This document shows, piece by piece, positions 1,573 to 62,027 of a DNA stretch of 64,000 nucleotides. The notes under the pieces were generated by a model. The model did not search any database. It was not told where the DNA came from and worked only from the letters and a program-made list of their open reading frames with translations. A program made the translations under genes and the position numbers. The stretch is from an uncultured Planctomycetia bacterium (GTDB lineage: Bacteria > Planctomycetota > MHYJ01 > WSZJ01 > CAZYRM01): positions 6,306 to 70,305 of the forward strand of contig CAZYRM010000006.1 in NCBI GenBank assembly GCA_964649705.1, in the 5' to 3' direction. Positions within the stretch are counted from its first letter, which is position 1, and every line of letters begins with the position of its first letter.

Positions 1573-2021
1573 GCGCACAGGTAGCCTGGAGCTGCGTCGG
1601 CTGCGGGGTCCGCCTCGAGACGGAGCCCGTCGCGACGATCCCGTCCTGCCCGAGGTGCGGGGCGACGAACCCCTGGGCCCCGAGCGAGGAGGTCCTCAAC
1701 GGAAGGGGGCCGGACCGCTGCGCGGTCTGCGGACGGAGCGAGCTGTACCGGGAGAAGGTCGTGAACCGCGCCCTGGGGCTGGGCATCGTGATCGTCGCGG
1801 CCGTCCTCGCGCCGTTCACGTACTACATCAGCCTCGCCGTCGCCGCGGTCATCGACGCGCTCCTGTACCGGTTCCTAAGCGAGCGGGGGGTCTGCTACCT
1901 GTGCCGGGCGGAGTATCGCGGGTTCCCCGGAATCCCCTCGCTGGGGAAGTTCGACCTGCACGTCGCCCAGGTGATGACCCGCTACAAGTGGCCTCCTCAG
2001 GAGGCCGAGAAGCATGCTTGA
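1569..2021 (+). CDS. zinc-ribbon domain membrane protein
   Basis: GTG start overlapping upstream stop (GTGA); two CxxC pairs (CVGCG, CPRCG, CAVCG) then two TM helices. Confidence 0.45.
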   Translation: MSAQVAWSCVGCGVRLETEPVATIPSCPRCGATNPWAPSEEVLNGRGPDRCAVCGRSELYREKVVNRALGLGIVIVAAVLAPFTYYISLAVAAVIDALLYRFLSERGVCYLCRAEYRGFPGIPSLGKFDLHVAQVMTRYKWPPQEAEKHA

Positions 2022-2397
2022 CGCCGAATACAACGCGCAGGTGATGGAGCACTTCCTCAACCCGAGGAACGTCGGGGAGCTGAAGGACGCCAACGCCATC
2101 GGGACCGCGGTCAACCCGGCCTGCGGCGACACGATGAAGCTCTACATCAGGGTCGACGCCGGGCGGATCGTCGACCTCCGCTTCAAGACCTTCGGCTGAG
2201 GGGCCGCGATCGCGACGTCCTCGATGGGGACGGAGATCTTCCGTGGGAAGACGATCGACGAGGCCCTCGCGGTGACGAACGACCAGATCGTCGGCGCCCT
2301 CGGCGGCCTCCCCGAGCGCAAGGTCGTCTGCAGCGTCCTCGCCGTCTCGGCCCTCCGCGCCGCCGTCGATGAACTGCGGAAACGCGCGGGTCAGTGA
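2014..2397 (+). CDS. iscU: IscU/NifU-like Fe-S cluster scaffold protein interrupted by in-frame TGA at 2197-2199 (conserved Cys position); candidate selenoprotein or pseudogene
   Basis: N-term NPRNVG...PACGDTMKL...RFKTFG[TGA]GAAIATSSMGTEI...VVCSVLA matches the IscU core (E. coli FKTYGCGSAIASSS); same reading frame before and after TGA; GGAGG RBS 9 nt upstream of ATG 2014. Confidence 0.7.
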
Positions 2398-3914
2398 CGG
2401 AGCTTCTCGTACGCCTCCTTCAGGCGGTCCCCCAGGGGCTTCGCGTCGCGGCCGTCGTGGCACTCCGCGCAGATCGACGGCGACCCTCGCCGGATCAGCC
2501 CCTCCTCCTCGGGTGAGGCCGAATGGCGGCGACCGGGCCCGTGGCAGGTCTCGCACCCGACGTCCCGGAGGGCGGCGGCGTTCGCGTCGCGGGGCGAGTA
2601 TCCCGTCGGGTAGCCGTAGCCGGTGCTGTGGCACGTGATGCAGCCCGGGTAGTAGTGACGGTCCATGTTCTCGAGGACCTTGGTCGCGCTGCCGTGGGGC
2701 GTGGAGCTCCACTGCCGTGCCTGGGGCTCGTGGCACTTCAGGCACGCGTCCTTCCCCACGTAGCCGTCCGTGGGGTCGTTCTCCCTCGGCTCACTCGCAA
2801 AGCGGCGGGGCGCCGGTCCGGCGAGCGAGGGGTCCTCGGCGATGCGCCGCATGAACGCCTCGACCTGATCCGAGGTCCGCGCGTCCAGTTCGATCTTCTG
2901 CGCGATCTGGAACATCCCGTATGCGACGGGCGCGCCGTCGGCGCCCAGGTCGACGTAGCGGATCCCGCCGAAGCTCGACGAGGACGTCCCGAACAGCAGG
3001 AGCGGACCCACGGGCTCCATGGGGTCCTCGTAGACGACCCGGGTCCGCTCGTCCGTCAGCAGGCGGGAGGCGGCCAGGGGCCGTCCCGTCAGCACCAGGT
3101 CGGGCGGCGCGGGGAGCGCCGCGATCCGCGCGACGTCCTCGCGAGAGAGGTCCCCGGTCAGGACGACGAGGTCGCCTCGGCCCTTGAGCGGGGCGACGGC
3201 GGCGGCCGCCTGCGCGGCGGCGTCGGGGTGGCCCCAGACGGGCGGCTTGGGGCCCGCGGGCGCGACGCGCATTCCCGGCGGGGGCTCGGGGGGGCTGTCG
3301 GCGCACACGACGGAGAGGGAGCGGCCGCCCAGCGCCAGGGTCACGGGGAGGCCTCCAATCGTCAGGAGGGGAGGGCCCGCCGCGGCGAGCGAGGACTGCA
3401 GGTCGGCCGTCAGGAACCCCCTCCCGCCGCCGACGGCGAAGGCCGAGAACGGAAGGTCCTTCAGGATCGCCGCGTAGACCCGCTGTCGCTCGCGATCGAG
3501 GGGGGAGTCGCCGTCGAGCGCCCCGCCGGCGTCGATCAGCGCGGTGCGCGGCGGCCCCTTCGCGAGCCGTCGAAGGAGCGCGGCCGAGTGGGCGAAGCGG
3601 ACGTTCTGCTTGCACGCGCAACTGTCCAGGCGGGACATCGTGCCGCCGATCCACACGAGGCGCAGCTCCGCGGGGGCCTCTCGGATGGTGACGCGGACCT
3701 CGAGGCGATCCGCCTCCTCGGTCATCCGTACCGTCCGCGGAGTCGTAGGCGCGGGGGGGCGCATCGGCGCGACGACGCGCGGCGGTGAGGGGGCCGGCGG
3801 TCGTGCGGGGCGCGGAGTCCAGGCGGGGCGGGTGCCCGGCAGCGCGAGGCACACGAGCACGCCGACGCCGACCAGCAAGCTGGCCCTGCCAGTGGCGACG
3901 ATCGACCATCCCAT
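2391..3914 (-). CDS. multiheme cytochrome c family protein (4 CxxCH) with N-terminal signal peptide and large N-terminal domain
   Basis: CLKCH, CITCH, CETCH, CAECH heme-binding motifs in C-terminal 120 aa; start chosen at MGWSIVATGRASLLVGVGVLVCLA (longest ORF reaches 3986). Confidence 0.65.
   Translation of the reverse strand: MGWSIVATGRASLLVGVGVLVCLALPGTRPAWTPRPARPPAPSPPRVVAPMRPPAPTTPRTVRMTEEADRLEVRVTIREAPAELRLVWIGGTMSRLDSCACKQNVRFAHSAALLRRLAKGPPRTALIDAGGALDGDSPLDRERQRVYAAILKDLPFSAFAVGGGRGFLTADLQSSLAAAGPPLLTIGGLPVTLALGGRSLSVVCADSPPEPPPGMRVAPAGPKPPVWGHPDAAAQAAAAVAPLKGRGDLVVLTGDLSREDVARIAALPAPPDLVLTGRPLAASRLLTDERTRVVYEDPMEPVGPLLLFGTSSSSFGGIRYVDLGADGAPVAYGMFQIAQKIELDARTSDQVEAFMRRIAEDPSLAGPAPRRFASEPRENDPTDGYVGKDACLKCHEPQARQWSSTPHGSATKVLENMDRHYYPGCITCHSTGYGYPTGYSPRDANAAALRDVGCETCHGPGRRHSASPEEEGLIRRGSPSICAECHDGRDAKPLGDRLKEAYEKLRH
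3870..3893 (-). repeat. copy 1 of 24-nt in-frame element (GACCAGCAAGCTGGCCCTGCCAGT), encodes TGRASLLV in cytochrome signal region
   Basis: 22/24 match to consensus GACCAGCAAGCTGGCCTTGCCAGG. Confidence 0.7.
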
Positions 3915-4272
3915 GCCTCGTGGTCGCGGCGGCTCGGTGGACCCCGCGGTCGGGGGGGGCGGCTTGTGGGGGCGCTTCTTGGACATCGGCCTGGGGAATC
4001 CTCCTCGACGACCATGCTATCGATCGGCGAACGGAGGCTCAATCCTGTCGTTCGGCGCGGCCGGTGTTCCATGTCGGACGCGCGGGCGCAATCCCACCTG
4101 GAACCCCTGGCCGGTCCGATTTCCCTTCGGGCGCTTAACCGCCGATCGGGCAAGGCGTTCCAGTGCGAGGGGATTCCGCGCCTCGGGTGCGAGGCTTGCA
4201 CACCAATCTCCTTGATGCCCGGCGCGCCGGAACGTACCATTCGCGTTCCGGAAGGCATCCAAGGAGGCTCGG

Positions 4273-6477: not shown

Positions 6478-7317
6478 ATGCCCGAGGCCCAGCAAGCAGG
6501 CCTTGCCAGGACCCCCCGGACACGCGCCCGCTGGCTCTGGGACGGCCCGTGGGCGCTCACGGGGAACCTCGCCAAGATTCGCGTGCTCGAGGACCTCATC
6601 GGGGAGTTCCCGAAGGGAGGACCCTCGGGGCGGGCCCGGATCCTCGACGTCGGCTGCGCGGGTCCGAGCCCTCTCAACCTGTGGGAGCCGTTCTTCGCGA
6701 GTCCTGAGGCGCCGCCGATCGAGGTCCAGGGCGTGGACGTCGACGCGGCCGGCGTGGAGGCCGTGCGGAGGCTCGCCAGGGAGCGCGGTTGGCCGCAGGT
6801 GGCTCGCCTGGAGGTCGGCTCGGCGTACGACCTGCCGCGCCTCTTCGCGCCGGGGACGTTCGACGCGGTGGTTTCGACGCAGGTGCTCGAGCACCTGGCG
6901 CGACCTGAGGAGTTCCTGCGCGGGGCGGCGGAGGTGACGAGGCCGGGCGGCCTGTGCTACGTCACGTTCGACTCGGGGCACTTCCCGTCGCACGACGCGG
7001 CCTGGAAGCGCCTCGCGCGGCGCTTGCTCGTGGCGCTCGGCAAGGAGCGGTACCACGAGAGGGGCCTGACGGAGACCGAGGTCGAGCGGATGGCGCGCGC
7101 TTGCGGTCTCTCGACGGTCGAGACGAGGTTCTACAACCTGCACGACGTGAAGCGGATCCACAACCACGGCGTCTCGGCGGACCGGAAGAACCGCCTGGCC
7201 GAGGTGTGGATGGAGCTGGAGGACTTCCTGAACGACGACCGCGCCTTCCTCGAGAGGGGAAGGCACTGGTTCGCAGGGATCTACATCAAGCTTCGGAAGT
7301 CGGAGTCGCGCCCGTAA
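6478..7317 (+). CDS. class I SAM-dependent methyltransferase
   Basis: ILDVGCAGPSPL glycine-rich SAM motif, Methyltransf_11-like; contains element copy at codons 4-11. Confidence 0.65.
   Translation: MPEAQQAGLARTPRTRARWLWDGPWALTGNLAKIRVLEDLIGEFPKGGPSGRARILDVGCAGPSPLNLWEPFFASPEAPPIEVQGVDVDAAGVEAVRRLARERGWPQVARLEVGSAYDLPRLFAPGTFDAVVSTQVLEHLARPEEFLRGAAEVTRPGGLCYVTFDSGHFPSHDAAWKRLARRLLVALGKERYHERGLTETEVERMARACGLSTVETRFYNLHDVKRIHNHGVSADRKNRLAEVWMELEDFLNDDRAFLERGRHWFAGIYIKLRKSESRP
6488..6510 (+). repeat. copy 2 of 24-nt in-frame element (CCCAGCAAGCAGGCCTTGCCAGG), encodes QQAGLAR
   Basis: sequence identity to other copies. Confidence 0.7.
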
Positions 7318-11114: not shown

Positions 11115-11234
11115 AGCCGACTGCAACGCCCTTGGGTCCGAAGACGGCCAGGTCGTCCAGGTGGCCTTCCTGCAGGACCAGAAGCATAAGACTCTGGCCT
11201 TGACTGGAGGCCACCTGTCCGCGATACTTCCTCC

Positions 11235-12620: not shown

Positions 12621-14693
12621 CTACAGGTGCGCGCGGAAGTACTCGACCACGCGCTCCTCCATGTTTCGCCGGTCCTTCTGGCTGCGCGGGACGTGGCGCT
12701 CCTCCGGGTAGAGGAGCAGGTCGACCTTGCGATTCGCCTTCGCGAGCGCGTCCAGGAACCGCGACGTGTGGCGGAAGTGCACGTTCTCGTCGATCATCCC
12801 GTGGACGATCAGGAGCTTCCCGCGGAGCTTCTCGGCGTGCGTCATCGCGCTGGCCTCCCGGTACCCCGCCGGGTTGTCCTGAGGCCGACGCATGTAGCGC
12901 TCGGTGTAGAACGTGTCGTAGCCGTCCCACGAGGTCACCGGCGCCCCGGCGACGCCGACCTTGAACACGTCGGACGCCTTGAGCAGGCAGAGGATCGTCA
13001 TGTACCCGCCGTAGGACCAGCCGTACATGCCGACGCGGTCGCCATCGACCCAGCCCCGGGACTGCGCGTATCGCACGCCATCCACCTGGTCGTCGACCTC
13101 CACGGTGCCCATGCGCCGCAGGATCTCGCCCTCGAACGCCAGCCCGCGCCGCGCGCTGCCGCGGTTGTCCACAGACATCACCACGAAACCCTGCGAGGCC
13201 AGGTACTGCGCGCGCAGGTCGACCGTCGTGCCCCAGGAGTCGAGCACGCTCTGCGCGTGCGGGCCCCCGTAGACGTCCACGATGAGCGGCGCCGGCAGGC
13301 GGGCGGGGAGGGTCACGACGCCGTGGAGCGTGACGCCGCTCCGGTTCCGGAACGTGAAGAGCTCCGGGGTTGCGAGGCGGACGTCGATCTCGGCGGGTTG
13401 GTGGAGCACGTGGATCGACCGGGCGTGGACCGTGATGGTCGGGGGGGCGAGCGTGGAGTGGAAGGTGTCGGCCCAGGCGGAAAGGTCCTTCGCGAACACC
13501 GCGCCGTGCATGCCAGGCTCGCTCGTCCAGGGCTCCGGCTCGCCGCCCTCGAGCGACGCGACGAGGACGTGACTCTCGACCGGTGAGGTCGCCGCGTGGA
13601 ACGCGACCCGCCGGTCTTCCTCGTCGAGCGTGACGCCTCCGCAGGGGAACATGGTCTCCGTCACGGGGCGGCACTCGCTACCGTCTGGCGAGTAGAGGTA
13701 GAGCTGCCGGTACCCGGTGCGCTCCGACGACCACAGGAACTCCCCGGTCGCGCGGACGAATCGGAGGTCGTCGTGGAGGTTGACCCAGATGACGCTTGCC
13801 TCGTTCAAGAGCGCCATCCGTCGCCCGGTCCGGGGCTCGTAGGCCCACAGATCGAGCCGCGTCTGGTCTCGGTCCATGGTCTGGACGAACAGGCGGCCGT
13901 CGGGGTGCCAGTCCACACGGCACAGGTACTCGGCGTCCTCCAGGTCGAGCCAGGTGACGGGCCCTCCGCGGGCGGCGACCACACCCAGGCGGGCCCGCGC
14001 GTTTTCGCCGCCGGCGAACGGGTAGCGGTGCTCCTCCAGGTCGTGCGGCTCGGCTGTCCCCCAGTGCGGGATGCGGAAGAGGGGGATGTGCCGCTCGTCG
14101 ACCTGCTCGAAGGCCAGACGCTCCCCGTCTCGGCTCCACCAGAAGCCCTGGGACCGGCCCATTTCCTCCTGGGCGACGTACTCGGCCAGCCCGTTCGTGA
14201 CTCCGGGCGCGGCGCCATGGGTCAGGCGTCGCTCCTGGCCGTCTGCCACGTCGAGGCACCAGAGCTCCCCGTCGCGGACGAAGGCGACCCGGCGGCCGTC
14301 CCGGGAGAGCCGAGGCGAGAGGGCATTCCCCCCGACGCGGCGCGCGCGGCCTCCCTCGACGACCCACAGCTCGCCGCGAAGGGGCACGAGGACGACCTCC
14401 GCGTCCTCGGCCCACTCGTAGTGCGTCACGCCCGTGTGGAGCAGCCGCTCGCGCTCGCGTCGAAGCTGCTCCTCGCGCGAGATGTTCTCCTCGGTGACGC
14501 CCGTCTCCGGGGCGAAGAACAGCGAGGTCTCACCGGTCGCGACATCCATGGACCACAGACGCCGATTCAGGCCGCCGTCGGGGTCGTGGAGGAAGGTCAG
14601 CAGCCGTCCGCTCGGGGAGAAGGCGAGCTTGGCGGGGACGGCCGTCCCTGGCGCGGGGATGTGCGCCACGAGGTCCAGCGTCAGCTCTCGCAT
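12621..14693 (-). CDS. S9 family peptidase (DPP-IV/prolyl oligopeptidase-like) with N-terminal beta-propeller
   Basis: GWSYGGYMT nucleophile elbow, C-terminal D...H triad region, TolB-like propeller repeats N-terminal. Confidence 0.8.
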   Translation of the reverse strand: MRELTLDLVAHIPAPGTAVPAKLAFSPSGRLLTFLHDPDGGLNRRLWSMDVATGETSLFFAPETGVTEENISREEQLRRERERLLHTGVTHYEWAEDAEVVLVPLRGELWVVEGGRARRVGGNALSPRLSRDGRRVAFVRDGELWCLDVADGQERRLTHGAAPGVTNGLAEYVAQEEMGRSQGFWWSRDGERLAFEQVDERHIPLFRIPHWGTAEPHDLEEHRYPFAGGENARARLGVVAARGGPVTWLDLEDAEYLCRVDWHPDGRLFVQTMDRDQTRLDLWAYEPRTGRRMALLNEASVIWVNLHDDLRFVRATGEFLWSSERTGYRQLYLYSPDGSECRPVTETMFPCGGVTLDEEDRRVAFHAATSPVESHVLVASLEGGEPEPWTSEPGMHGAVFAKDLSAWADTFHSTLAPPTITVHARSIHVLHQPAEIDVRLATPELFTFRNRSGVTLHGVVTLPARLPAPLIVDVYGGPHAQSVLDSWGTTVDLRAQYLASQGFVVMSVDNRGSARRGLAFEGEILRRMGTVEVDDQVDGVRYAQSRGWVDGDRVGMYGWSYGGYMTILCLLKASDVFKVGVAGAPVTSWDGYDTFYTERYMRRPQDNPAGYREASAMTHAEKLRGKLLIVHGMIDENVHFRHTSRFLDALAKANRKVDLLLYPEERHVPRSQKDRRNMEERVVEYFRAHL

Positions 14694-21185: not shown

Positions 21186-22808
21186 ATGTCGAAGAAGGAC
21201 AAGACGAAGCTCGATCACCCGGAAGCGGGGATGGACGACCCGACCCCTCCCTTCGGCCTCAAGATCCTCGTGTTCACGGGGGGCGCCGTGCTCATGGGGC
21301 TCGAAATCGTCGGGAGCCGTGTGCTCGCCCCCCACTTCGGGAACTCGGTGTTCGTGTGGGGGAGCCTGATCAGCGTCTTCCTGATCGCCCTCTCGGCCGG
21401 GTACTACGTCGGAGGGCGCGTCGCGGACCGGAGGCCCTCCTTCGCGCTCCTCAACACGCTGTGCCTCGTGGCCGGGCTCCTCATCCTGCTCGTCCCCTAC
21501 GTGGGCCGAGGCCTCTGCGAGTCGCTCTACAAGGCGGGGTGGGGCGAGAAGGCGGGGCCGCTGCTCGCCACGGCGCTGCTGTTCCTCCCCGCGAGCGTCC
21601 TCATGGGGATGCTCTCGCCGTTCTCCGTGCGCCTCGCGGCGAGCGCATTGCACACGGTCGGATCGGCCGCGGGGACGCTGTACGCGCTGTCCACGGTCGG
21701 GAGCATCGCCGGGACGCTCGTGACGACGTTCGTCCTCATCCCGCAGTTCGGGGTGACGGGGATTCTGCGCGGCCTCGGCGCGGTCATGATCGCCGTCCCG
21801 TTCGTCATGCTCCTTTCCCGGCCGAAGCGGGCCGTCGCGATTGCGCCGATGTTCTTCCTGGGCGTCCTCGGGGCCGTGGCGCCCGCCCCCGCCTCGGTCA
21901 CGCTCAACCCGGGCGAGGAGATCGTCGTCGACGAGGACACCCCGTACCATCACATCCTCGTCATCGACTCGCAGCGCGGCAAGGCGCGCGTCGACGAAGA
22001 CGTCCCCGGCGCGTACCGGTACCTCCGGTTCGATCGGTACATCGAGAGCCTCATCGAGCTGGGAAAGCCGTACCGGAGCCGCGCGCAGTACACCGACTAC
22101 TTCCACCTCGCCTTCCTCGCGAAGCCGAAGATCTCTCGGGCCGTGTTCATCGGCGCCGGAGGCGGGATCGGGCCGCGCACGTTCGCCGAGGTCGATCCGG
22201 AGATGAGGATCGATGTCGTCGACATCGACCCGCGGATCCTCGAGGTCGCCCACGACCTCTTCAAGATGCCCGTGAACGAACGGGTCCGCACGCACGCCAT
22301 CGATGGGCGCATGTTCATGCGCAACGCCGCGGAGAAGTACGACTGCGTCGTGCTGGACGCCTTCACGATCGGCGGGCGGATCCCCTTCCATCTGACGACC
22401 CGCGAGTTCTTCGAGCTGTGCGCCTCGCGCATGACGGACGACGGCGTGTTCGTCATGAACGTGAACAGCGCGATGGAGGGGGAGTTCGGCGGGATCTTCC
22501 TCCACGTCGCGAAGACGCTCACCGAGGTCTTCCCGCGCGTGGACGTGTTCGCGAAGGAGCTGAGCAGCGAGAAGCCGCCCGACCGCGGGGACCATCGCAA
22601 CCAGATCGTCATCGCGAGGAAGGGCGGGGCGGAGATGAAGCGCGAGGAGTGGGAAAAGCGCATCTGGGACTACCGGGAGGGCAGCTACGTGACGAAGGCG
22701 ATGCTCTACCCGATGGTCAAGGACCTCGATCAGGAGTGGCGGGACGACATCGGTCCCTTCCCGACGCTCACCGACGACTTCGCCCCGATCGAGACGCTGA
22801 AGTTCTGA
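21186..22808 (+). CDS. fused polytopic membrane domain + spermidine synthase-like (polyamine aminopropyltransferase family) protein
   Basis: N-terminal MFS-like TM helices; C-terminal VFIGAGGG...VDIDP...VVLDAF spermine/spermidine synthase motifs. Confidence 0.65.
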   Translation: MSKKDKTKLDHPEAGMDDPTPPFGLKILVFTGGAVLMGLEIVGSRVLAPHFGNSVFVWGSLISVFLIALSAGYYVGGRVADRRPSFALLNTLCLVAGLLILLVPYVGRGLCESLYKAGWGEKAGPLLATALLFLPASVLMGMLSPFSVRLAASALHTVGSAAGTLYALSTVGSIAGTLVTTFVLIPQFGVTGILRGLGAVMIAVPFVMLLSRPKRAVAIAPMFFLGVLGAVAPAPASVTLNPGEEIVVDEDTPYHHILVIDSQRGKARVDEDVPGAYRYLRFDRYIESLIELGKPYRSRAQYTDYFHLAFLAKPKISRAVFIGAGGGIGPRTFAEVDPEMRIDVVDIDPRILEVAHDLFKMPVNERVRTHAIDGRMFMRNAAEKYDCVVLDAFTIGGRIPFHLTTREFFELCASRMTDDGVFVMNVNSAMEGEFGGIFLHVAKTLTEVFPRVDVFAKELSSEKPPDRGDHRNQIVIARKGGAEMKREEWEKRIWDYREGSYVTKAMLYPMVKDLDQEWRDDIGPFPTLTDDFAPIETLKF

Positions 22809-23779
22809 TGCGCGTCCGCCTGGCGCTCCTGTGCCTCGCCGCGGCGCTCGCGGTCCCCTCCGCGTGCAAGAAGCCCCCCGCCCCGCCCCCCCCGGCGACG
22901 CGCGAGCAGGCCTTCGACGAGGGCCGCTCGTGGAAGGACCTCCAGGCGCTCTGCGCGATGGGCCCGCGCTGCCACGGCAGCGAGGGGCACAAGAAGGCAC
23001 AGGCGTACCTCCGGGACACGCTCAAGGCGTGCGGCGCCGAGGTGAGAGACCTGCCCTTCGAGTACCGCGGCCGTGAGGACGGGACGCCGCGCCCCTTCAC
23101 GAACATCGCCGGGAGGTTCAAAGGGAAGCAGGACGAGCAAGCTGGCCTTGCCAGGAAGTGGGTCCTCTTGGGTACCCACTACGACACCAGGCTGTGGGGC
23201 GACGTGGACCACGACGAGGCCGCGCGCGGGAAGCCGATCGAGGGTGCAAACGACGGCGGGTCGGGGACCGCGGTGCTTCTCGAGGTCGTCCGCGTGCTCC
23301 AGGCGCACCCGCCCGACGTCGGAGTCGAGATCGTCTTCTTCGACGGGGAGGACTACGGCCGCCCCAGCAGCCCCGACTACTTCCTCGGGTCGAAGGACAT
23401 GGCGAGGAACTGGGACAAGCTCTACCCGGGGCCCAGGCCCGCGTGCGCGGTCATCCTCGACATGGTGGGGGACGCCGACTTTCGGCTATGGCGCGACGGG
23501 GTCTGCGAGCGGGCGCATCCGTGGCTCAACGAGCTTCTCTGGAAGGCAGGCTCCGAGCTCGGATCGCCGGCCTTCGTCGGATCGCCGCTCAAGGGGGTGA
23601 CCGACGACCAGACGGCGCTGATGGAAATCGGGATTCCGGCGACGCTGCTGATCGACTTCGACTATCCGCCCTGGCACACGTCGCGCGACACGATCGACCG
23701 GTGCTCCGCGAAGAGCCTGGGGATCACGGGACGGGCGCTCCTCCGGGCCCTGATCGATCGCCCCTTCGAGACGAAGTAG
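22808..23779 (+). CDS. M28 family peptidase (lipoprotein), with element copy inserted mid-protein
   Basis: lipobox LAVPSAC; HYDT...DDGSG...FFDGEDYG (Zn ligands of M28); start overlaps upstream stop (TGATG). Confidence 0.7.
   Translation: MRVRLALLCLAAALAVPSACKKPPAPPPPATREQAFDEGRSWKDLQALCAMGPRCHGSEGHKKAQAYLRDTLKACGAEVRDLPFEYRGREDGTPRPFTNIAGRFKGKQDEQAGLARKWVLLGTHYDTRLWGDVDHDEAARGKPIEGANDGGSGTAVLLEVVRVLQAHPPDVGVEIVFFDGEDYGRPSSPDYFLGSKDMARNWDKLYPGPRPACAVILDMVGDADFRLWRDGVCERAHPWLNELLWKAGSELGSPAFVGSPLKGVTDDQTALMEIGIPATLLIDFDYPPWHTSRDTIDRCSAKSLGITGRALLRALIDRPFETK
23132..23155 (+). repeat. copy 3 of 24-nt element (GACGAGCAAGCTGGCCTTGCCAGG), encodes DEQAGLAR inside M28 peptidase
   Basis: 23/24 match to consensus. 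Confidence 0.7.
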
Positions 23780-25074: not shown

Positions 25075-27252
25075 CTATTCTCCTTCTTCGCCGCCCGGGC
25101 CCGCCGAGGGGACGCTCCCCGCGTCGGCCTGGAAATCCACGATCTCCATCCCCGGCCCTCCGGGGGTCGTCATCTTCACCAGCCCCACGTCGGGGGCGTA
25201 GAACAGCTCGGAGGTCATCGTCCCCCCGGAGGGGTCCACGCTCTCGTACAGCACCTTCAGGCAGTTCCGGAACGTCCCCATGCGGGTGTCGACCGTCTCG
25301 TTCGTCGACTGGTACGTCCGCCTGAGCTTGAGGCGCCCCGAGGACGACTCCCAGCTCCGCCCCGCGGCAATCGGGAGGACGAACCAGACGTCCCGCTTCC
25401 CCTCCCGCTCCTGCCAGACCTCCTGGGCCCCGACGAACAGCGTCACGGGCCGGTATCCGTCGTCGGCCCCGGACCGCGACTCGACGGCGACCTCCACCTT
25501 CGATCGGCTCCCCTGGTCCTCGACCGCGTCGACGCGCATGACGTCCTCCCGCCCGTCGCTCCAGGCGTAGACCCAGCGCATCCCGAGGTCGAGCGGGAAG
25601 TACCGCTCCCGCACGCGTCTCGTCGACACGACCTCGACCTCGGCGACCGTTCGCAGCTTCTCGATCTCCTCGCGCCCCCATGCCGCATGGGCCTCGCTCG
25701 TGGTTCCCTCGACGAAGGCCTGCAGGAGGGACTCCTTCTCCGAAGGGCCGCACGGTCCCGAGAGACGCTGCTGGAGCTTCCCGAATTCGGCCTCCTGGAT
25801 GGCAGCCGCGATCTCCTCGTCCTCGGGCAGGAGGGCCTGCGCGGTGCGCAGGTGGGAGACGGCGATCGGATAGTCGCCCTCGGAGAAGGCCGCCAGGCCG
25901 AGCCTCCGGGAGACCTCCGCGCACCTCGAGCGCCACTCGTCCGCGCGGTCCGTGTCGAGCGCCTCGAGCGCCTCGGCGGCCGCGACCGCGCCGGCCGAAT
26001 CTCCGTCCACGCGGGCCACGAACGCCTGGATCAGGCGCTCCCGCGTCGCGTCCCACTCCGGTTCCGCTCGCTGTGCGAGGAACCGGTGGACCGCCGCGAG
26101 GCCGTCGACGGAGGCCTCCGCGGGGATCGCCTCGATGGCCGCCGCCAGGAGGCCGCCGGCGTCCGCGGCCGCGTACCGCTGGGCAAGCCAGTCGAGGAAG
26201 CCCTCCAGTCCCGTCGCGTCCCCCTCCGCGAGGCGCCGGGCCAGCTCCTCGGAGCACGCCGTCGCCGACCGCTCGTGGAACGACTGCGCGCGGGCGGGCG
26301 CCATCCGGGCCATCGCGTCCAGCTCTTCGCAGGCCCGAGCGACGTCCCTCGACGCGAGCAGCCTCGCGACGGAGGAGTCCTGCACCTCGATGACGCGCGC
26401 CAGGGCCCGCTCGCGCTCGAGCGGGTTGTGCTGCATCAGGTCGTAGCAGCGCTCGATCGCCCTTGCACCCTGGCCGGACGCGGCGAAGGCCTCGGCCTCG
26501 GCCATCATCCGAGCCTCGACGTCCCACGGCGGCGGGGGAGACGGGCGGATCGCGAGGTAGCGGTTCCAGTGGGCGCAGGCGCGGTCGAGGTTGCCGCTCG
26601 CGAGGAAGTGTCGGGCCGAGCGGTACTCCGCCTCGGGCTCCGTGCACCGGGCGCGGAGCATGTCCAGGAGGAGGAGGTCCAGCTTCGACCGCTGGCCGGT
26701 CCGCTCGAAGAGCCCCTTGAGCGCAGAGAGTGCCCGGGCGCTTCCCGGGTCGACGGCGAGGACCTGCCTGAGCTCCCGTTCCGCCTCGTCGGCGTCTCCG
26801 CACGCCTCGCAGGCGCGTGCGAAGCCGAGACGGGCGTCTAGCGACCACGGGTCGAGCTGCTTCGCGCGCTCGAGCAGGGGGCGCGCGGCCTCGGGCTGCC
26901 CCGCGTCGAGCGCCGCTAGCCCGTCGGCATGGGCCTGCACGGCCTCGGGGGTCCTATCCTCGGGCTCGATCCACTGCTCCTGGGCGGGCGTCGATACGAC
27001 GGTCTCGTCCTCGACGACCTGCGAGGGGGCCGGGGCGATCGTGCGGATGTCGCGTTCGGGGACGCGCACGAGCTCCGCGCCGGTGCGGATGGTGTAGACG
27101 CCGCCCGAAAAGGCGGCAATCTCGCCGACGACGGTCCGTCCGTCCTTCAAGCGGAGCTCGACGGCGCTGGCAAGGCCAGCTTGCTGGTCGTCCGCGGAGG
27201 CGACGGTGGCGAGAGAGAGCAGGACCGTGGCCGCCCAGGTGGCGGTGCGCAT
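25075..27252 (-). CDS. secreted TPR-repeat protein
   Basis: signal peptide; multiple TPR-like helical repeats; element copy at codons 22-29. Confidence 0.5.
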   Translation of the reverse strand: MRTATWAATVLLSLATVASADDQQAGLASAVELRLKDGRTVVGEIAAFSGGVYTIRTGAELVRVPERDIRTIAPAPSQVVEDETVVSTPAQEQWIEPEDRTPEAVQAHADGLAALDAGQPEAARPLLERAKQLDPWSLDARLGFARACEACGDADEAERELRQVLAVDPGSARALSALKGLFERTGQRSKLDLLLLDMLRARCTEPEAEYRSARHFLASGNLDRACAHWNRYLAIRPSPPPPWDVEARMMAEAEAFAASGQGARAIERCYDLMQHNPLERERALARVIEVQDSSVARLLASRDVARACEELDAMARMAPARAQSFHERSATACSEELARRLAEGDATGLEGFLDWLAQRYAAADAGGLLAAAIEAIPAEASVDGLAAVHRFLAQRAEPEWDATRERLIQAFVARVDGDSAGAVAAAEALEALDTDRADEWRSRCAEVSRRLGLAAFSEGDYPIAVSHLRTAQALLPEDEEIAAAIQEAEFGKLQQRLSGPCGPSEKESLLQAFVEGTTSEAHAAWGREEIEKLRTVAEVEVVSTRRVRERYFPLDLGMRWVYAWSDGREDVMRVDAVEDQGSRSKVEVAVESRSGADDGYRPVTLFVGAQEVWQEREGKRDVWFVLPIAAGRSWESSSGRLKLRRTYQSTNETVDTRMGTFRNCLKVLYESVDPSGGTMTSELFYAPDVGLVKMTTPGGPGMEIVDFQADAGSVPSAGPGGEEGE
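27166..27189 (-). repeat. copy 4 of 24-nt element (GACCAGCAAGCTGGCCTTGCCAGC on minus strand), encodes DQQAGLAS
   Basis: 23/24 match; perfect GCTGGC-CTT-GCCAGC inverted repeat. Confidence 0.7.
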
Positions 27253-27358
27253 GGACTTCCCCCCTATGCCGGGCATCTACTAAGGTATCGGCACAGGGAG
27301 GGGGAGGGGTTGAGGGAACGCGCAAGGCTCAATGCGCAAGATGCAAGACGCGCGCGGG

Positions 27359-30606: not shown

Positions 30607-30679
30607 TGGGCAGGGCCGGGATTGAACCGGCGACCCCCGGCTTTTCAGACCAGTGCTCTTCCAGCTGAGCTACCTGCCC
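30607..30679 (-). tRNA. tRNA-Phe (anticodon GAA)
   Basis: cloverleaf: acceptor GGGCAGG/CCTGCCC, D-arm GCTC-AGCTGGAA-GAGC, anticodon loop CTGAAAA, T-arm GCCGG-TTCAATC-CCGGC; CCA not encoded. Confidence 0.85.
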
Positions 30680-33924: not shown

Positions 33925-34022
33925 CGGCCCGGTTCATGGCTCGGCCCGGCCAGCTTGTAGGGGCGACCCGCGGGGTCGCCCGAGGCGGCGAACTTGAGAC
34001 ACGCCGGTATCGGGGGTGCAGA

Positions 34023-35735: not shown

Positions 35736-36164
35736 TCAAGCGAGCGGGTTCGACCAGCGGAGGCCCTCGAAGCGGGCGAAGTCCGCGTCGCACGAGCACA
35801 GCTCCGCGCCGTGCTCCACCGCCACCGCGGCGAGGTGCGCGTCGGCGGTCAGGTTCCCAGCGGTGCCCAGGGGGCGCAAGAGCCCCGCCAGGATCTCGAG
35901 GTGCCGCTCGGTCGGCTGGACGACCGCGGCGCAGGGACGGGCGAGCCAGGTCTCGATCAGCGTCAGCGCCTCGTCGAGCGGAATCGGCGTGGCGAAGATC
36001 AGCGGGCGGGTCGCCAGGCGCAGGAAGGCGAGGAGCACCGTCCACTCGAAACCGACGGCCTCCGTCCCGGAGAGCGCCGCCTCGAACCACGGCTTCGCCT
36101 TGGCGTGGTGCGGCGAGTCCTCATTCACGGCGTACAGGAGGAGGTTGACGTCGAGGAGCTTCAT
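35736..36164 (-). CDS. vapC: type II toxin VapC (PIN domain ribonuclease)
   Basis: MKLLDVNLLLYA...D...E...D acidic PIN residues; 4-nt overlap with upstream antitoxin. Confidence 0.75.
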   Translation of the reverse strand: MKLLDVNLLLYAVNEDSPHHAKAKPWFEAALSGTEAVGFEWTVLLAFLRLATRPLIFATPIPLDEALTLIETWLARPCAAVVQPTERHLEILAGLLRPLGTAGNLTADAHLAAVAVEHGAELCSCDADFARFEGLRWSNPLA

Positions 36165-36424
36165 TTTCGCAGGCTCAGCCTTCTCGCGATCTCCTCGTCC
36201 TCGAGCGAGGCGGCGAGCGAGAGGGCCTTGTCGAGCCCCAGTTCGGGGCGGTACCCCATCCGGTAGGTCTTGAGGCGATAGGGACGGCCACCACGGGATG
36301 GCGGTCTCGCCAGCCCGCTCCGGATCGCTTCGTTCAGCGCGGCCTTGAACGAGATCCCCTTGTCGCGCATCGCGCGCTTCAGGAGGGCCACGACGTCAGG
36401 ATCGAGCGTCAGCGTAGTCCTCAT
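36161..36424 (-). CDS. vapB: type II antitoxin VapB (ribbon-helix-helix)
   Basis: 87 aa, MRTTLTLDPDVVALLKRA RHH-like N-term, immediately upstream of vapC. Confidence 0.65.
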   Translation of the reverse strand: MRTTLTLDPDVVALLKRAMRDKGISFKAALNEAIRSGLARPPSRGGRPYRLKTYRMGYRPELGLDKALSLAASLEDEEIARRLSLRK

Positions 36425-36599: not shown

Positions 36600-38666
36600 A
36601 TGGAGCCTAGCATGAACTGGGGAGGCTACCTGCGCGCAGCGCTCCGCGGGCTCGTTCAGGCGGTCCCGGTCGTCGGGCCGATGGTCGCCGAGTGCGCGAA
36701 GCACGCCGAGGAGGAGAGGTTCCAGGCCCACGTCGAGGCGCTCGCGCTCCGCGTCGCCCGGGGGGAGCGGGGGAGGACCCAGGGCCTCCTGCGGCTCACC
36801 GAGCAGGAGGTCGAGCAGTCCGTCGCGGACGCCGTTCGCGGCCTGTCTGGGCCCGATCGTGAACGCCTCGTGGCACCCCTCGCGCATCCGCCGGCGGGGG
36901 CGCCTGCCGATTCGGTGCGCGAGGCGTTGACGAGCGTGCTGGCGGGGCTCTCGGAGTCGCCTCGAGTCCGACACTCTCTTCTGACCTGCCTCTCCGCGCG
37001 CATCGAGCAGGGTCGACCTCTGAATCCTGGTACGCGTCTGGACAAGTACGAGGTTCTCGAGCTTATCGGCGTGGGCGGGATGGGCATGGTGTACCGCGCG
37101 AGGGACCTGGAGCTGGACCAGGACGTGGTGATGAAGCTCCTGAGGCCTCAGCTCGCGCAGGACCCTGCGTGCGTCCGTCGGTTCATCGAGGAGGCGAAGG
37201 TCGGGCTCGAGTTGACGCACGAGGGCATCGTCCGCGTGAGGGACGTTCGTCGGCACGATGGGACGCCCTATCTCACGATGGAGTGGGTGGACGGAGGGAC
37301 GCTTCGCGGACTGCTTGACGCGCGCGGGAAGTTGACCTGGGCCGATGCCGAGCCGATCGCACGGGGGTTCCTGCGGGCCCTGGCGTACGCGCATGGGAAG
37401 GGCGTGCTGCACCTCGACGTGAAGCCGGAGAACGTCCTCCTGCCGCGCCACGACGCGCCGAAGCTGTGCGACTTCGGCTTGGCGAGGGCCTTGGCGCGCC
37501 CTGGCGGCTTGTCGATGCTGCCCGGCGCTGGGACGCCCGACTACATGGCGCCCGAGCAGCGCGCGGGGGGCGCGGTGGACAAGCGGGCGGACGTGTACGC
37601 GGCGGGCGTGGTGCTCTACGAGTTGCTCGCCGGCGCCTTGCCTGATCGCCACTCCCCGACGCTGGCGGAGGGCCTCGGCGTGGAGGCGCACCTCTCGGAG
37701 GCGGTGGAGGCGGCGTTGCAGCGGAACCCCTCGCTCCGTCCCGCAGACGCACAGGCGCTTCTGGAACGGCTGGGTGCCCCTCGCGTCGAGGTCGTCGCTT
37801 CGCCACGGCAGGCGCCGATCGCTGCGAATGCGCCCAAGGTCGTGGATGCACCCAGGCCCGCGGAGCGCGTCCTCGTGTCGCGCCTCGTCATTCCAGGTCT
37901 GGTCTTCTTGCGTGTGAACGAGAAGGGGTACGAAGAGTACCGGCACGAGAAGACGGGGATGGAGCTAATCCACGTGCTGCCGGGGGAATTCATGATGGGG
38001 CTCAAGTCGATATGGACGGACAGGGAGCCCGTGCATCGCGTGGAGCTAGATGGTTACCTCATTGGCAAGTACCAACTAACGAACGGCGAATACCGGGCGT
38101 TCCACACGGCGACCAGGCACCCGGCGCCCTGGCCGCCAGAGCGGAGCTACCTGTATGAGTACTTCACAGACTCACGGTTTGATGCGCATCCGGTCGTTTA
38201 CCTCGGCTGGGAGGAGGCAAAGGCCTATTGCGATTGGGCGGGGCTCAGACTGCCGACGGAGGCGGAGTGGGAGTACGCGGCGAGGGGGAGAGACGGGAGG
38301 ATGTACCCATGGGGAAACGAGAAACCGGACCGATCGCGGACGAACTTCGGAGACCTGTCAGATCGTGATTATTACACGCGTGCCCGGGGCTCGTATCCGG
38401 CAGGGGCGAGCGCGTGCGGCGCGCAAGACATGGTAGGAAACGTGTGTGAGTGGTGCTCGGACTGGTACGATGAAACGTACTATGAGACCTGTGGTCACGG
38501 GGCAAGGAACCCGAGGGGGCCCGGTAGCGGCTCCTCCCGGGTGGTGCGGGGAGCCTCCTGGAACATGTATGGCGGGATCCGGCCCGTGACGAGTCGCGAG
38601 TGGCGGCACCCGGCGAACCGGGGCTACGTCGTCGGTTTCCGTGTTGCGAGGAGTCTAGCGCGCTGA
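36600..38666 (+). CDS. Ser/Thr protein kinase fused to C-terminal formylglycine-generating-enzyme (FGE/SUMF1) domain
   Basis: kinase: [33 protein letters not shown]; FGE: [45 protein letters not shown]. Confidence 0.75.
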
Positions 38667-47217: not shown

Positions 47218-47280
47218 GGAGGGCCTCCCTTCGGCGCCCCCTCGGGGGCTCGGGAGGGGGTCAACGTCATCGCGGAGAAG

Positions 47281-47353
47281 AGCGGGCGATCGGGCTCGAA
47301 CCGACGACATCCACGTTGGCAACGTGGTGCTCTACCAACTGAGCTACGCCCGC
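47281..47353 (-). tRNA. tRNA-Gly (anticodon GCC)
   Basis: acceptor GCGGGCG/CGCCCGC, D-arm GCTC-AGTTGGTA-GAGC, anticodon loop TTGCCAA, T-arm GTCGG-TTCGAGC-CCGAT. Confidence 0.85.
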
Positions 47354-54778: not shown

Positions 54779-55141
54779 ATGGCAACCGCGAAACACCAGC
54801 AAGTCGGCCCTGCCAGGATGAAGAGGACGGCGCTCCCCGGGCTCGTCTTCGAGCCCGTCGATCCCGTCATCCACCAGCCGGCCCGGCTCTCCATCCTCTC
54901 CGTCCTTGCCGCCTCGGAGTCGATGACGTTCTGCGAGGTGAAGGAGCTGACGGGCCTCACCGACGGGAACCTCTCCATCCACGTCCGCAACCTGGAGACG
55001 CACGGGCTCGTCAAGGTGGACAAGTCGTTCGTCGACCGCCGCCCCCAGACGCGCTACTCGCTCACCCCGAAGGGGCGAAAGGCCTTCGCCCAGTACCTCG
55101 GGCAGCTCGAGGAGTTCCTCAGGAGACAGAAGGGCCACTAA
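54779..55141 (+). CDS. winged-helix transcriptional regulator
   Basis: ARLSILSVLA...MTFCEVKELTGLTDGNLSIHVRNLETHGLV...RYSLTPKG wHTH; element copy at codons 6-13. Confidence 0.55.
   Translation: MATAKHQQVGPARMKRTALPGLVFEPVDPVIHQPARLSILSVLAASESMTFCEVKELTGLTDGNLSIHVRNLETHGLVKVDKSFVDRRPQTRYSLTPKGRKAFAQYLGQLEEFLRRQKGH
54794..54817 (+). repeat. copy 5 of 24-nt element (CACCAGCAAGTCGGCCCTGCCAGG), encodes HQQVGPAR
   Basis: 20/24 match to consensus. Confidence 0.6.
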
Positions 55142-60000: not shown

Positions 60001-61182
60001 ATGAAGCCCGGCGCGCTCAAGAAGGTCCTGTCGCTCGTGCTCCGCCTCGCCGTGAGCGCGGGACTGATCGCCTACGTCATCCACATCATCCCGTTCCTGG
60101 ACGTGGTCCCCCGGGTCGGCCAGGAGCCCCTCCGCGGGCGCGTCGTGTCGGAGACCCCTCAGGCCCTGACCGTGCTCGTGGAAGACAAGGACGACAAGAC
60201 GCAGGTCGTCCCCGTCGAGCAGATCGAGGAGCGGCCCGACAAGCCGCTCTACGACAAGGGCTTCCTGCACATCGTGAGGGAGATCCGCCTCGGCGTCTAC
60301 CTGCCGACTCTCCTCCTCATCCTCGCCGTCATCCTGATCGACGTCGTCCGCTGGAAGGTCCTCCTGCGCGTCCAGGGGATCGACCTCGCGTACGGCCCGG
60401 CCCTCGCGCTCACCTACGGCGGGATCTTCTGCAACAGCTTCATGCTCGGGTCGACCGGGGGCGACGTCATCAAGGCCGTCCTCGTGGCGCGCCACACGTC
60501 GCGCAAGGCCCGCGCCGTGCTCACCGTCTTCCTGGACCGAGTCATCGGCCTCGTGGCGCTCATCATCGTCGCCGGCGCCGTGATCCCGTTCGAGATCGAC
60601 CGCGTCGAGGTCCGCCGCCTCGCCTGGGGCGTCTACGGCTTCCTCGCCGCCTTTCTCGCGGGGTGCCTCGTCTACTTCCACCCCGCCTTCCGCGCCTCGC
60701 GCCTCTTCCGGTGGCTCATGGCGAGGCTCCATCTGAAGGTCTTCCACGAATTGGATGCCGCCTTCTACGCCTACCGAGGCCAGCCGCGCGCGCTGGCAAT
60801 CGCATTCGGCATCTCGTTCGTCGCCCACATGTGCGGGATCTTCGCGATCGTCGGGTTCGGGAAGGCGCTCGGGATCACGGAGGCCTCGATCGCGCACTAC
60901 TTCGTCTTCTTCCCCATCATCGCCGTGATCAGCTCGATCCCCATCTCGATCTCGGGGTGGGGCGTCGGGGAGGCGGCCTTCATCGCCCTCTTCGGGGCCG
61001 TGGGCGTCACGGAGCCGGCCGCGGTCTCCCTGTCGATCCTCTCGCGGCTATCGACGCTTCTCGTGGGACTGCCGGGCGGCCTCGTGTTCCTGCTCGGGAT
61101 CGAGGACTTGAAGGTCAAGGAGTCCGAGGTCGCCGAGGTGGAGCGCGCCGAAGAGGGCGGCGACGGGCCGAGCGCCGGATGA
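60001..61182 (+). CDS. lysylphosphatidylglycerol synthase TM-region-like / UPF0104 flippase-like membrane protein
   Basis: 8 TM helices, conserved GGDVIKA motif. Confidence 0.55.
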   Translation: MKPGALKKVLSLVLRLAVSAGLIAYVIHIIPFLDVVPRVGQEPLRGRVVSETPQALTVLVEDKDDKTQVVPVEQIEERPDKPLYDKGFLHIVREIRLGVYLPTLLLILAVILIDVVRWKVLLRVQGIDLAYGPALALTYGGIFCNSFMLGSTGGDVIKAVLVARHTSRKARAVLTVFLDRVIGLVALIIVAGAVIPFEIDRVEVRRLAWGVYGFLAAFLAGCLVYFHPAFRASRLFRWLMARLHLKVFHELDAAFYAYRGQPRALAIAFGISFVAHMCGIFAIVGFGKALGITEASIAHYFVFFPIIAVISSIPISISGWGVGEAAFIALFGAVGVTEPAAVSLSILSRLSTLLVGLPGGLVFLLGIEDLKVKESEVAEVERAEEGGDGPSAG

Positions 61183-62027
61183 TCCGGACCGGCAGAGCCA
61201 GCTTGCTGGTCCGCGGCCTGACGTTCCACCCCCCCGGCGTCGAGACCCCGGTCCTCGACCGGTTCTACTCCGACGTCCCCGCGGGGAGGCTCCTCGTCGT
61301 GACCGGGCCCGCCGCGGGCGGGAAGACGGTCCTCCTGCGCCTCCTCGCCACGCTGCTCTCCCCGACCGCGGGCACGGCCGAGGTCGACGGTGCCGACCTG
61401 CGCGACGACCCGGTCGCGGTGCGCGAGCGGATCGGCTGGCTCGCGGCGGGCGCGCTGGGGTCCGAGCGCGACACGCCGCGGAGCAGGGTCGTCACCGAGC
61501 TCAGGCTCCGCGGGTGGGGGAAGGCCGAGGCGCTCTCGCGGGCGGAGGCGGTCCTCGGCGCGGTGGGCTCCCGCAGCGAGGGGGACACGCCGCTCGGCGC
61601 CCTCGCCCCGGGCGCGCGCCGTCGGGCGCTGCTCGCGCGCGCGATCGCGCACGACCCGCCGGTCCTCCTGCTCGACGAGCCGCTGGAGCATCTGGACCTG
61701 ATCGAGCGGGAGGTCGGCTGGGCGGTCCTCCGCGCGGCGAAGCGGGCGGGGAGGGCGATCGTCTGCGCGACGAGGTTCCCCTCGGGGCTCGAGCCGGTCG
61801 CGGACGGCGTCGCGGTGCTGCGCGACGGGAGGTGCCTGGCGCGCGGGGAGTGCGCGATGGTGAGGGAGAGTACGCGGGCCCCTTCGCTCGAGGAGGCGGT
61901 CCTCAGGGTCCTCGCCGCGGACGGCCTGCCGGGGGCCCAGGATACGCTGGACGCGCGAGCTACGCCGGGGCCGGAGGGGCCGCCGGGACCGCCTGAGGCT
62001 CCGCCTTCTTCCGGATCACCTCCTTGA
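61179..62027 (+). CDS. ABC transporter ATP-binding protein
   Basis: Walker A GPAAGGKT, signature-like LAPGARRRALLARA, Walker B LLLDEP; ATGA overlap with upstream stop; element copy at codons 4-11. Confidence 0.65.
   Translation: MIRTGRASLLVRGLTFHPPGVETPVLDRFYSDVPAGRLLVVTGPAAGGKTVLLRLLATLLSPTAGTAEVDGADLRDDPVAVRERIGWLAAGALGSERDTPRSRVVTELRLRGWGKAEALSRAEAVLGAVGSRSEGDTPLGALAPGARRRALLARAIAHDPPVLLLDEPLEHLDLIEREVGWAVLRAAKRAGRAIVCATRFPSGLEPVADGVAVLRDGRCLARGECAMVRESTRAPSLEEAVLRVLAADGLPGAQDTLDARATPGPEGPPGPPEAPPSSGSPP
61189..61211 (-). repeat. copy 6 of 24-nt element (GACCAGCAAGCTGGCTCTGCCGG on minus strand), encodes TGRASLLV on plus strand in ABC ATPase N-terminus
   Basis: 21/23 match to consensus. 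Confidence 0.65.

Follow-up and report, generated by a model that had tools for sequence, protein, structure and literature searches.

A 21-bp, very probably mobile repeat inserted within and between genes of uncultivated groundwater Planctomycetota

The closest described counterparts of the repeat analyzed here are short, hairpin-capable repeats of bacteria that are linked to single-strand transposases. Quentin et al. (2018) distinguished a small 'class 3' of HuH-Y1 (TnpA-Y1) proteins, found mainly in Planctomycetes and Acidobacteria and also in Proteobacteria, and reported that hairpin repeats of high copy number, with CnGA at their 5' foot, flank the class 3 tnpA genes (PMC6006769). Relatives of the IS200/IS605 group act on single-stranded DNA, bind subterminal hairpins and recognize a conserved target tetranucleotide that flanks the left end (PMC6006769). 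REPs (repetitive extragenic palindromic sequences) are palindromes of 20–40 bp that bear GTAG or CGTC as a tag and mostly lie between genes; copies inside genes are also known, for instance in Opitutus terrae, and Rickettsia palindromic elements (RPEs) are inserted in frame (Di Nocera et al. 2013, PMC3733652). In a further report, the dissemination of REPs is described as still poorly understood (PMC8266576). In the present study we analyzed a stretch of 64,000 nucleotides from an uncultured Planctomycetia bacterium (GenBank assembly GCA_964649705.1, contig CAZYRM010000006.1, positions 6,306 to 70,305; hereafter the window), which has a GC content of 68–72% and carries six copies of a 21-nt unit, CCAGCAAGCTGGCCYTGCCAG, in six unrelated genes. 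Comparison with relatives leaves little doubt that this unit is a mobile insertion element.

The unit belongs with the selfish repeats of the REP and RPE type. Like RPEs and intragenic REPs, it is a palindromic repeat that stands in frame in seemingly functional genes, with many copies near N-termini or in loops. However, RPEs are 100–150 bp long, form other sequence families and occur in an unrelated host, and intragenic REPs are a minority within mostly intergenic families with GTAG or CGTC tags, whereas our 21-bp unit is mainly gene-internal and adds only seven amino acids. Fungal mitochondrial genes contain mobile GC clusters and 'byp' elements, which are short, rich in GC and hairpin-forming, and which invade coding sequence. 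These resemble the unit in that respect, but they are organellar and variable in length, and the ribosome skips the byp elements instead of translating them. The 8-nt quasi-inverted termini of the unit recall the MITEs (miniature transposable elements with inverted repeats) of the DDE type, but the unit lacks the target duplication that marks this class. Its unusual features are the size of 21 bp, the base-precise insertion without target duplication beside CnGA, and the near-random colonization of coding sequence. The sequence string of the unit had no match in the literature that was searched, and a keyword search returned only literature on RPEs, REPs and MITEs.

The 21-nt unit and its family

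The initial annotation of the window had reported six copies of a 24-nt element, and a mismatch search, shuffled sequences and a weight matrix all support these six. The 24-mer consensus is matched in the window with 1–4 mismatches at starts 3870, 6487, 23132, 27166, 54794 and 61188, and not once in 100 dinucleotide-preserving shuffles of the window. A weight matrix derived from the copies gives all six of them scores of 31–38 bits, the next best site in the window 11 bits and shuffled sequence 7–16 bits; the window contains exactly six recognizable copies. Two degenerate copies that had been suspected at 33945–33963 and 11186–11204 score at most 6.7 bits, which is background, and are chance matches. 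The length had to be corrected from 24 to 21 nt by comparison with empty sites, the leading 'GA' of the 24-mer being target sequence that was present before insertion. In consensus orientation the strands of copies 1 to 6 are +, +, +, −, + and −, copy 1 having previously been assigned to the minus strand. The unit is quasi-palindromic, such that each strand reads 5'-CYRGCAAG...CTTGCYRG-3', and the window flanks of the six copies share no similarity past it. It is free of stop codons in all six frames, a property shared by 62.5% of the 21-mers that this window (70% GC) contains, and its codon usage is atypical for the host genome.

A scan of JGI metagenomes with a 19-mer pattern matched at least 120 contigs. 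The family statistics below are based on 111 high-GC sequences, namely 110 JGI contigs among the matches listed plus the window, with every sequence within 4 mismatches counted as a unit. In these sequences there are at least 229 units at at least 175 non-redundant sites. Most of the sequences come from six metagenome sets, and the carriers represent one lineage of uncultivated groundwater Planctomycetota in which the unit is present at high copy number. We excluded low-GC (44–58%) contigs with single 19-mer matches, about ten of them from JGI and two of them IMG/VR 'viral' contigs, which occurred in about the number expected by chance and probably do not belong to the family (L035, L038, L040, L053, L072 and L074, and likewise L091, L092, L096, L101, L138 and L139). 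The scan of viral contigs (IMG/VR) gave two low-GC single matches; the contig of one is identical with that of a JGI locus, and chance probably explains these matches too. An all-against-all BLAST of 300-nt flanks revealed no larger parent element and no common flanking repeat; it returned only overlaps between neighboring sites and paralogues. Two paralogous genes on contig L039 (sites 6015 and 12802) are 86% identical over 277 nt and both carry the unit at codon 5, with 4 mismatches in the copy at 12802; here the gene must have been duplicated after the insertion.

Filled and empty sites in relatives

Copies 1 to 4 are missing at the corresponding sites in relatives that are 76–91% identical, so that the orthologues found there do not share the extra residues. 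All alignable gaps measure exactly 7 aa or 21 nt, with neither duplication nor deletion of the target. Copy 1 (CCAGCAAGCTGGCCCTGCCAG, 3872–3892, plus strand) lies in the N-terminal membrane anchor encoded by a minus-strand multihaem cytochrome c gene (2391–3986), where it is flanked by CCGA and read in reverse as TGRASLL. This and the other five host-gene identities proposed before were borne out by Pfam. The same site in an 85% identical relative (L144/L145) has no unit, but another unit is present there about 20 codons downstream in the opposite orientation, and the cytochrome c orthologues carry units at differing sites and in differing orientations. In the public annotation the cytochrome gene does not begin until 3725 (444 aa), and the anchor with the copy is lost. 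The homologues P0196 and P0198 start with MSKKR, as does the window gene from the ATG at 3986, and the insert appears to have misled the prediction of the start codon. The earlier claim that every copy is located in coding sequence is therefore correct as it stands for copies 2 to 6, and for copy 1 only with the start at 3986.

Copy 2 (6489–6509, plus strand, one mismatch) forms codons 4–11, AQQAGLAR, of a class I methyltransferase gene (6478–7317). It is present in a 91% identical orthologue (P0121), and an 84% identical orthologue (P0122) is 7 aa shorter at this position. Copy 3 (23134–23154, plus strand, one mismatch with CGAG for CCAG) is situated in a loop of an M28 peptidase gene (22808–23779). 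The loop reads QDEQAGLAR in the window and GE in orthologues, and 16 homologues, one of them 87% identical, lack 7 aa exactly at the repeat. At the DNA level, the relatives L007/L008 have aag-GGSGAG-aagtgg and the window has aag-CAGGACGAGCAAGCTGGCCTTGCCAGG-aagtgg in its place; the net difference is +21 nt, which confirms that these residues are extra relative to the family. Another relative, L097, has an unmutated unit at the same position in its JGI assembly. The AlphaFold model of the peptidase (mean pLDDT, predicted local distance difference test, of 88.5) places the insert residues 108–116 between the strands 95–104 and 118–124, at the position of lowest confidence within the folded core; this modeled placement would fit the survival of insertions at tolerant sites. 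The protein with the insert is 100% identical to the database entry 'MAG: M28 family peptidase [Planctomycetota bacterium]', and the insertion recurs in five independent assemblies, of which two are from Hain_H51 (ENA, one record also at NCBI) and three are Logan runs. For this reason the copies are not artefacts of assembly. Copy 4 (27167–27187, minus strand, exact) follows directly after the signal peptide of a TPR protein gene on the minus strand (25075–27276), where it is read as QQAGLAS, and the sequence of a 76% identical relative (L010), GCGGACGA|CCCACC, is shorter by exactly 21 nt (7 aa).

The remaining two copies are shared with a syntenic JGI contig (L131) that is 82–88% identical to the window. 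Copy 5 (54796–54816, plus strand, two mismatches) encodes HQQVGPAR at codons 6–13 of a gene for a winged-helix HTH_34 regulator (54779–55141), and it is an older insertion because it is shared with L131, whose unit is still the consensus. Copy 6 (61189–61209, minus strand, two mismatches) is flanked by CGGA and occupies codons 4–11 of a plus-strand ABC ATPase gene (61179–62027) in the reverse reading TGRASLLV. Its counterpart in L131 has the same length and differs at 5 of the 21 unit positions, with 9–17% divergence in the flanks; judged from this alignment, copy 6 is an old copy that decays roughly neutrally at about the rate of its flanks. For shared orthologous copies, 6 of 84 positions differ, compared to 10.7% pooled in the flanks.

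The comparison also holds in the reverse direction. Opposite units of the syntenic relatives L104, L071, L080 and L131, the window shows gaps of exactly 21, 42 or 63 nt. The flanks of these gaps are conserved, duplications or deletions are absent, and the inserted unit is thereby fixed as CCAGCAAGCTGGCCYTGCCAG. Two orthologous kinases that are 91% identical have the unit 23 nt apart and in different frames, and must have acquired it by independent insertions into the same loop. A gene of the window that encodes a Ser/Thr kinase fused to an FGE-sulfatase domain (36600–38666, plus strand; Pfam) contains no unit, and its orthologue on L071 has a 63-nt composite of three units, one forward and two reverse, in the kinase domain (L071:5090–5153) as well as a further single unit upstream. 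Absence in orthologues, gaps of 21 nt and independent insertions agree with the initial proposal of an RPE-like miniature mobile element that is inserted in multiples of 3 nt at permissive coding sites.

These comparisons also bear on the idea that the repeat is a word of the uptake-sequence or Chi type, which was built in place by point mutation combined with biased uptake or gene conversion. DNA uptake sequences (DUS) and uptake signal sequences (USS) reach high copy numbers, mostly in coding sequence and in several reading frames, and the unit resembles them in all these respects. However, the informative comparisons without exception reveal clean gaps, 21 nt long or a multiple thereof, instead of substitutions at equal length, and the nested insertions and tandem arrays described below are likewise at odds with such an origin, which we regard as very improbable.

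Reading frames, genes and the insertion target

Frames were assigned with a codon-usage log-odds test on each flank, and sites were classified as genic or intergenic with a codon-usage gene caller. Within the window only two of the six possible frames are read, as previously noticed, but this does not extend to the family, which uses all six. The robustly intragenic sites encode WQGQLAG (27 sites), QQAGLA (21), SKLALP (10), GKASLL (10), PASWPCQ (7) and LARPACW (5), the rarest frames being the two that encode Cys and Trp. A shared heptapeptide module of proteins could account for the tandem (QQAGPAS)n stretches of some proteins, which resemble protein repeats. Yet a single DNA sequence is read here in six frames to give six unrelated peptides, with a codon usage that is atypical. 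Together with an assembly artefact, against which stand the identical insertion in independent ENA and Logan assemblies and the related copy in a JGI assembly, this is the least probable of the explanations considered, and we give it hardly any weight.

The unit is located in called genes at 145 of the 175 sites (83%), compared to a coding density of 86%, and 30 sites are intergenic where 24 are expected; 55% of the sites lie deep in genes and 17% between genes. An enrichment in coding sequence, as had been supposed from the window, is absent, and the agreement of the two percentages indicates that coding sequence is not targeted. As its 21 nt are divisible by 3 and no frame contains a stop, the unit adds only seven residues when inserted into a gene, and it is merely tolerated in coding sequence.

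Five of the six window copies are found within the first 40 or so codons. In the family, the first 20 codons contain 21 sites where 8.4 are expected (an excess of about 2.5-fold), and the last 20 codons contain 6 sites compared to 7.9 expected. Both observations would suit a selected cis element near translation starts, for instance an operator, a hairpin of the RNA or a site bound by a protein, and the excess lends a little support to an earlier suggestion that the repeat might be a cis site near the 5' ends of genes. The remaining evidence does not: sites are mostly gene-internal or intergenic in the proportions given above, both orientations and all frames are used, shared copies diverge at about the rate of their flanks (6/84 compared to 10.7% pooled, and 5/21 for copy 6), the hairpin does not exceed shuffled sequence in stability, and the origin by insertion is directly shown. 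Moreover, the 5' excess can be explained by the tolerance of N-termini for extra residues. Selection as a cis element is therefore unlikely, although less remote than the uptake-like or protein-module explanations. A σ54 promoter on the reverse strand (TGGCA-N-TTGC) was dismissed by inspection, the spacing from GG to GC being 12 nt instead of 10.

The sites reveal a clear preference for a target. An A adjoins the unit at 77% of the sites, compared to 28.5% expected (p = 1e-38). CnGA adjoins it at 46 of 169 sites (27%, with 3.9% expected; p = 1e-25), nnGA at 53% (15% expected) and nSRA at 62%, the commonest flanks being CCGA (16) and CGGA (15). The reconstructed empty site is nSRA^SnnG. In four clean empty sites the tetranucleotide is already in place, which means that CnGA belongs to the target and not to the unit. 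The preference for A holds with A at codon position 1 or 2 and, being independent of the codon phase, acts at the level of the DNA. Relative to A^ the unit is oriented forward at 65 sites and in reverse at 44, and either orientation is possible because both strands read CYRGCAAG...CTTGCYRG. The presence of A at position −1 and of T at position +1 is anticorrelated (Fisher p = 1.5e-4), as results from one A^ per site on either strand. A palindromic target was considered and rejected; the flanks show no complementarity. Flanking target-site duplications, which the initial annotation had thought worth seeking, were not found; the 21-nt gaps are clean, and flanking direct repeats are as frequent as expected by chance. 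In every clean case the junctions are precise to the base and contain neither small deletions nor filler.

Nested insertions that read CCAGCAA|unit|GCTGGCCYTGCCAG occurred independently five or six times, and one further nested insertion is inverted; the GCAA^G of the unit itself is therefore also a target. In addition, units form tandem arrays of direct repeats, which are homogeneous within an array and have a period of exactly 21 nt. Arrays of 4–6 units are present at L113:1872–1997, L044:10417–10521 and L050:4084–4167, the last of them within a 5' leader, some 30 nt upstream of a start codon. Five units of the L113 array have a private variant, CGAACTGG, in common, and the copy number of an array varies by strain (two units in L020, one in L093). 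The shared private variant and the difference between strains indicate that the arrays arose by local slippage and not by repeated insertion.

A candidate mechanism and further features of the window

The best reading of these data would be that the 21-mer is a REP-like, non-autonomous substrate of an enzyme of the class 3 type. Under this proposal, a HuH-Y1 enzyme that acts on single-stranded DNA and belongs to the IS200/IS605–RAYT superfamily would mobilize the unit in trans, and the 'class 3' TnpA-Y1 group offers the likeliest candidate. The candidate enzyme would cut 3' of a CnGA-like tetranucleotide and paste the folded unit into single-stranded DNA. Whatever the enzyme, each event adds exactly 21 bp in either orientation without duplication or deletion of the target, preferably right after an A in an nSRA context and most often at CCGA or CGGA. 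Intragenic copies survive at tolerant places, such as N-terminal tails, the edges of signal peptides and surface loops, and copies later expand locally into arrays through slippage and decay through point mutation. We assign a probability of about 0.55 to this explanation as a whole, that is, to a mobile 21-bp unit that is mobilized in trans by a HuH-Y1 enzyme. Taken on its own, the assignment of the enzyme to the HuH-Y1 class is tentative, with odds slightly below even.

The similarities to the class 3 repeats support this assignment. Both are short, hairpin-capable repeats of the same phylum; those of class 3 occur in hundreds of copies per genome, and the unit reaches a similarly high copy number in its planctomycetal host (six per 64 kb). 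CnGA stands directly 5' of the class 3 repeats, and CCGA and CGGA are the commonest flanks of the unit. On the other hand, no class 3 gene is linked to the unit, the CnGA at the unit is part of the target and present in empty sites, and in-frame intragenic insertion is not reported in PMC6006769. As in REPs or REPINs and their RAYT proteins (REPtrons), the unit is palindromic, non-autonomous and of high copy number, it falls within their size range of 21–65 nt, and the HuH mechanism is expected to leave no target duplication. It differs from them in that neither the unit nor the flank profiles contain GTAG or CGTC, that it is not extragenic (145 of 175 sites being in called genes), that it rarely forms inverted doublets and folds weakly, and that a phmmer search with RayT, a weak probe, found no homologue in the related DNA searched. 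With the 'peel and paste' elements of the IS200/IS605 group (IS608, ISDra2) the unit shares insertion 3' of a short specific sequence, the lack of target-site duplication, and DNA hairpins in place of terminal inverted repeats. Those elements, however, are autonomous, 1–2 kb long and of fixed orientation with two distinct subterminal hairpins, whereas the unit has 21 nt, does not encode an enzyme and is inserted in both orientations.

Several observations weigh against mobilization by a HuH-Y1 enzyme of this type. Insertion in both orientations relative to A^ is unlike the orientation-specific IS200/IS605 elements, so that the model needs either strand to serve as substrate. An IS200/IS605 element has two subterminal hairpins, for which 21 nt leave no room. 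Alone the unit folds weakly, with a minimum free energy of −4.1 kcal/mol (z = −0.5 relative to shuffles), with three mutually exclusive hairpins of 4–5 bp being possible. At 23% of the sites there is no adjoining A on either strand. A search of GTDB species representatives with a 20-mer pattern gave six single matches in unrelated taxa, which corresponds to chance level, and the class 3 repeats are comparable to the unit by their description and not by repeat sequence. Finally, a phmmer search of 9,748 six-frame open reading frames (ORFs) with E. coli RayT and three motif scans, all of them insensitive, detected no HuH-Y1 gene either in the window or in related DNA totaling about 1.1 Mb. By the same insensitive scans and search, no class 3 tnpA ORF (NHVH ... 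YV[VI]xEQ) flanked by repeats was seen in the window or in these loci. The RayT probe does not even retrieve IS608 TnpA from the PDB. Since a single-sequence probe is too weak and one gene per multi-megabase genome is easily missed, this is not a real negative.

Some of these points are what one would expect if the unit is mobile but moved by means other than a HuH-Y1 enzyme, for example by capture of an abundant blunt 21-bp duplex at double-strand breaks, by a serine-recombinase-type or IS91-like system without target duplication, or by reverse-transcriptase-templated insertion. The 65 forward and 44 reverse orientations, the lack of a HuH-Y1 gene in the roughly 1.1 Mb covered by those insensitive tests, the weak folding and a length insufficient for two IS200-type ends all favor such a mover. 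Against it, the junctions are base-exact and free of the deletions or filler typical of end-joining, the target context nSRA^S is defined, and the CnGA match to the class 3 HuH-Y1 repeats of the same phylum would have to be a coincidence. The homogeneous direct arrays with private mutations, moreover, fit slippage and neither random ligation nor a realigning template, for which the period would be 17 nt. We therefore judge a mover of another kind to be the most serious competitor of the HuH-Y1 proposal, albeit a rather doubtful one.

Irrespective of the enzyme, the data provide many exact pairs of filled and empty sites for a REP-like element, together with precise junctions, a target motif and nested insertions. 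They offer a concrete candidate substrate for the orphan class 3 HuH-Y1 enzymes; if class 3 indeed drives the unit, this would be the first defined substrate, target (CnGA^) and product for these enzymes. The unit also indicates that a selfish repeat can live in genes when it measures 21 nt and is stop-free, and it yields a natural map of the tolerance for seven extra residues across hundreds of proteins. In addition, it is a source of annotation error, gene callers having placed the cytochrome c start downstream of the insert. Should the enzyme be found, the pasting of 21 bp without target duplication would be of biotechnological interest. On a more speculative note, the unit might be the smallest transposable unit described, a stop-free stretch of 21 bp that spreads through coding sequence at random and thereby acts as a natural mutagen, inserting heptapeptides across the proteome of a Planctomycetota lineage, driven by class 3 HuH-Y1 enzymes or by a mechanism as yet unknown.

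Some further features of the window deserve mention. An IscU/NifU_N-like ORF at 2014–2397 (plus strand) is broken by an in-frame TGA (2197–2199) at the conserved Cys of this family (..RFKTFG*GAAIATSS..), and the public gene calls give two ORFs of 61 and 57 aa. The TGA may be a selenocysteine codon, or the gene may be a pseudogene; over the 60 nt that begin with the TGA, folding is not better than in shuffled sequence. At 35736–36424 on the minus strand, a PIN-domain gene (35736–36164) and a small upstream ORF (36161–36424) overlap by 4 nt and, from their arrangement, look like a VapBC-type toxin-antitoxin pair, with a Pfam match for the PIN domain only. The only Rfam and ARAGORN matches in the window are a tRNA-Phe(GAA) at 30607–30679 and a tRNA-Gly(GCC) at 47280–47353, both on the minus strand and unrelated to the unit.

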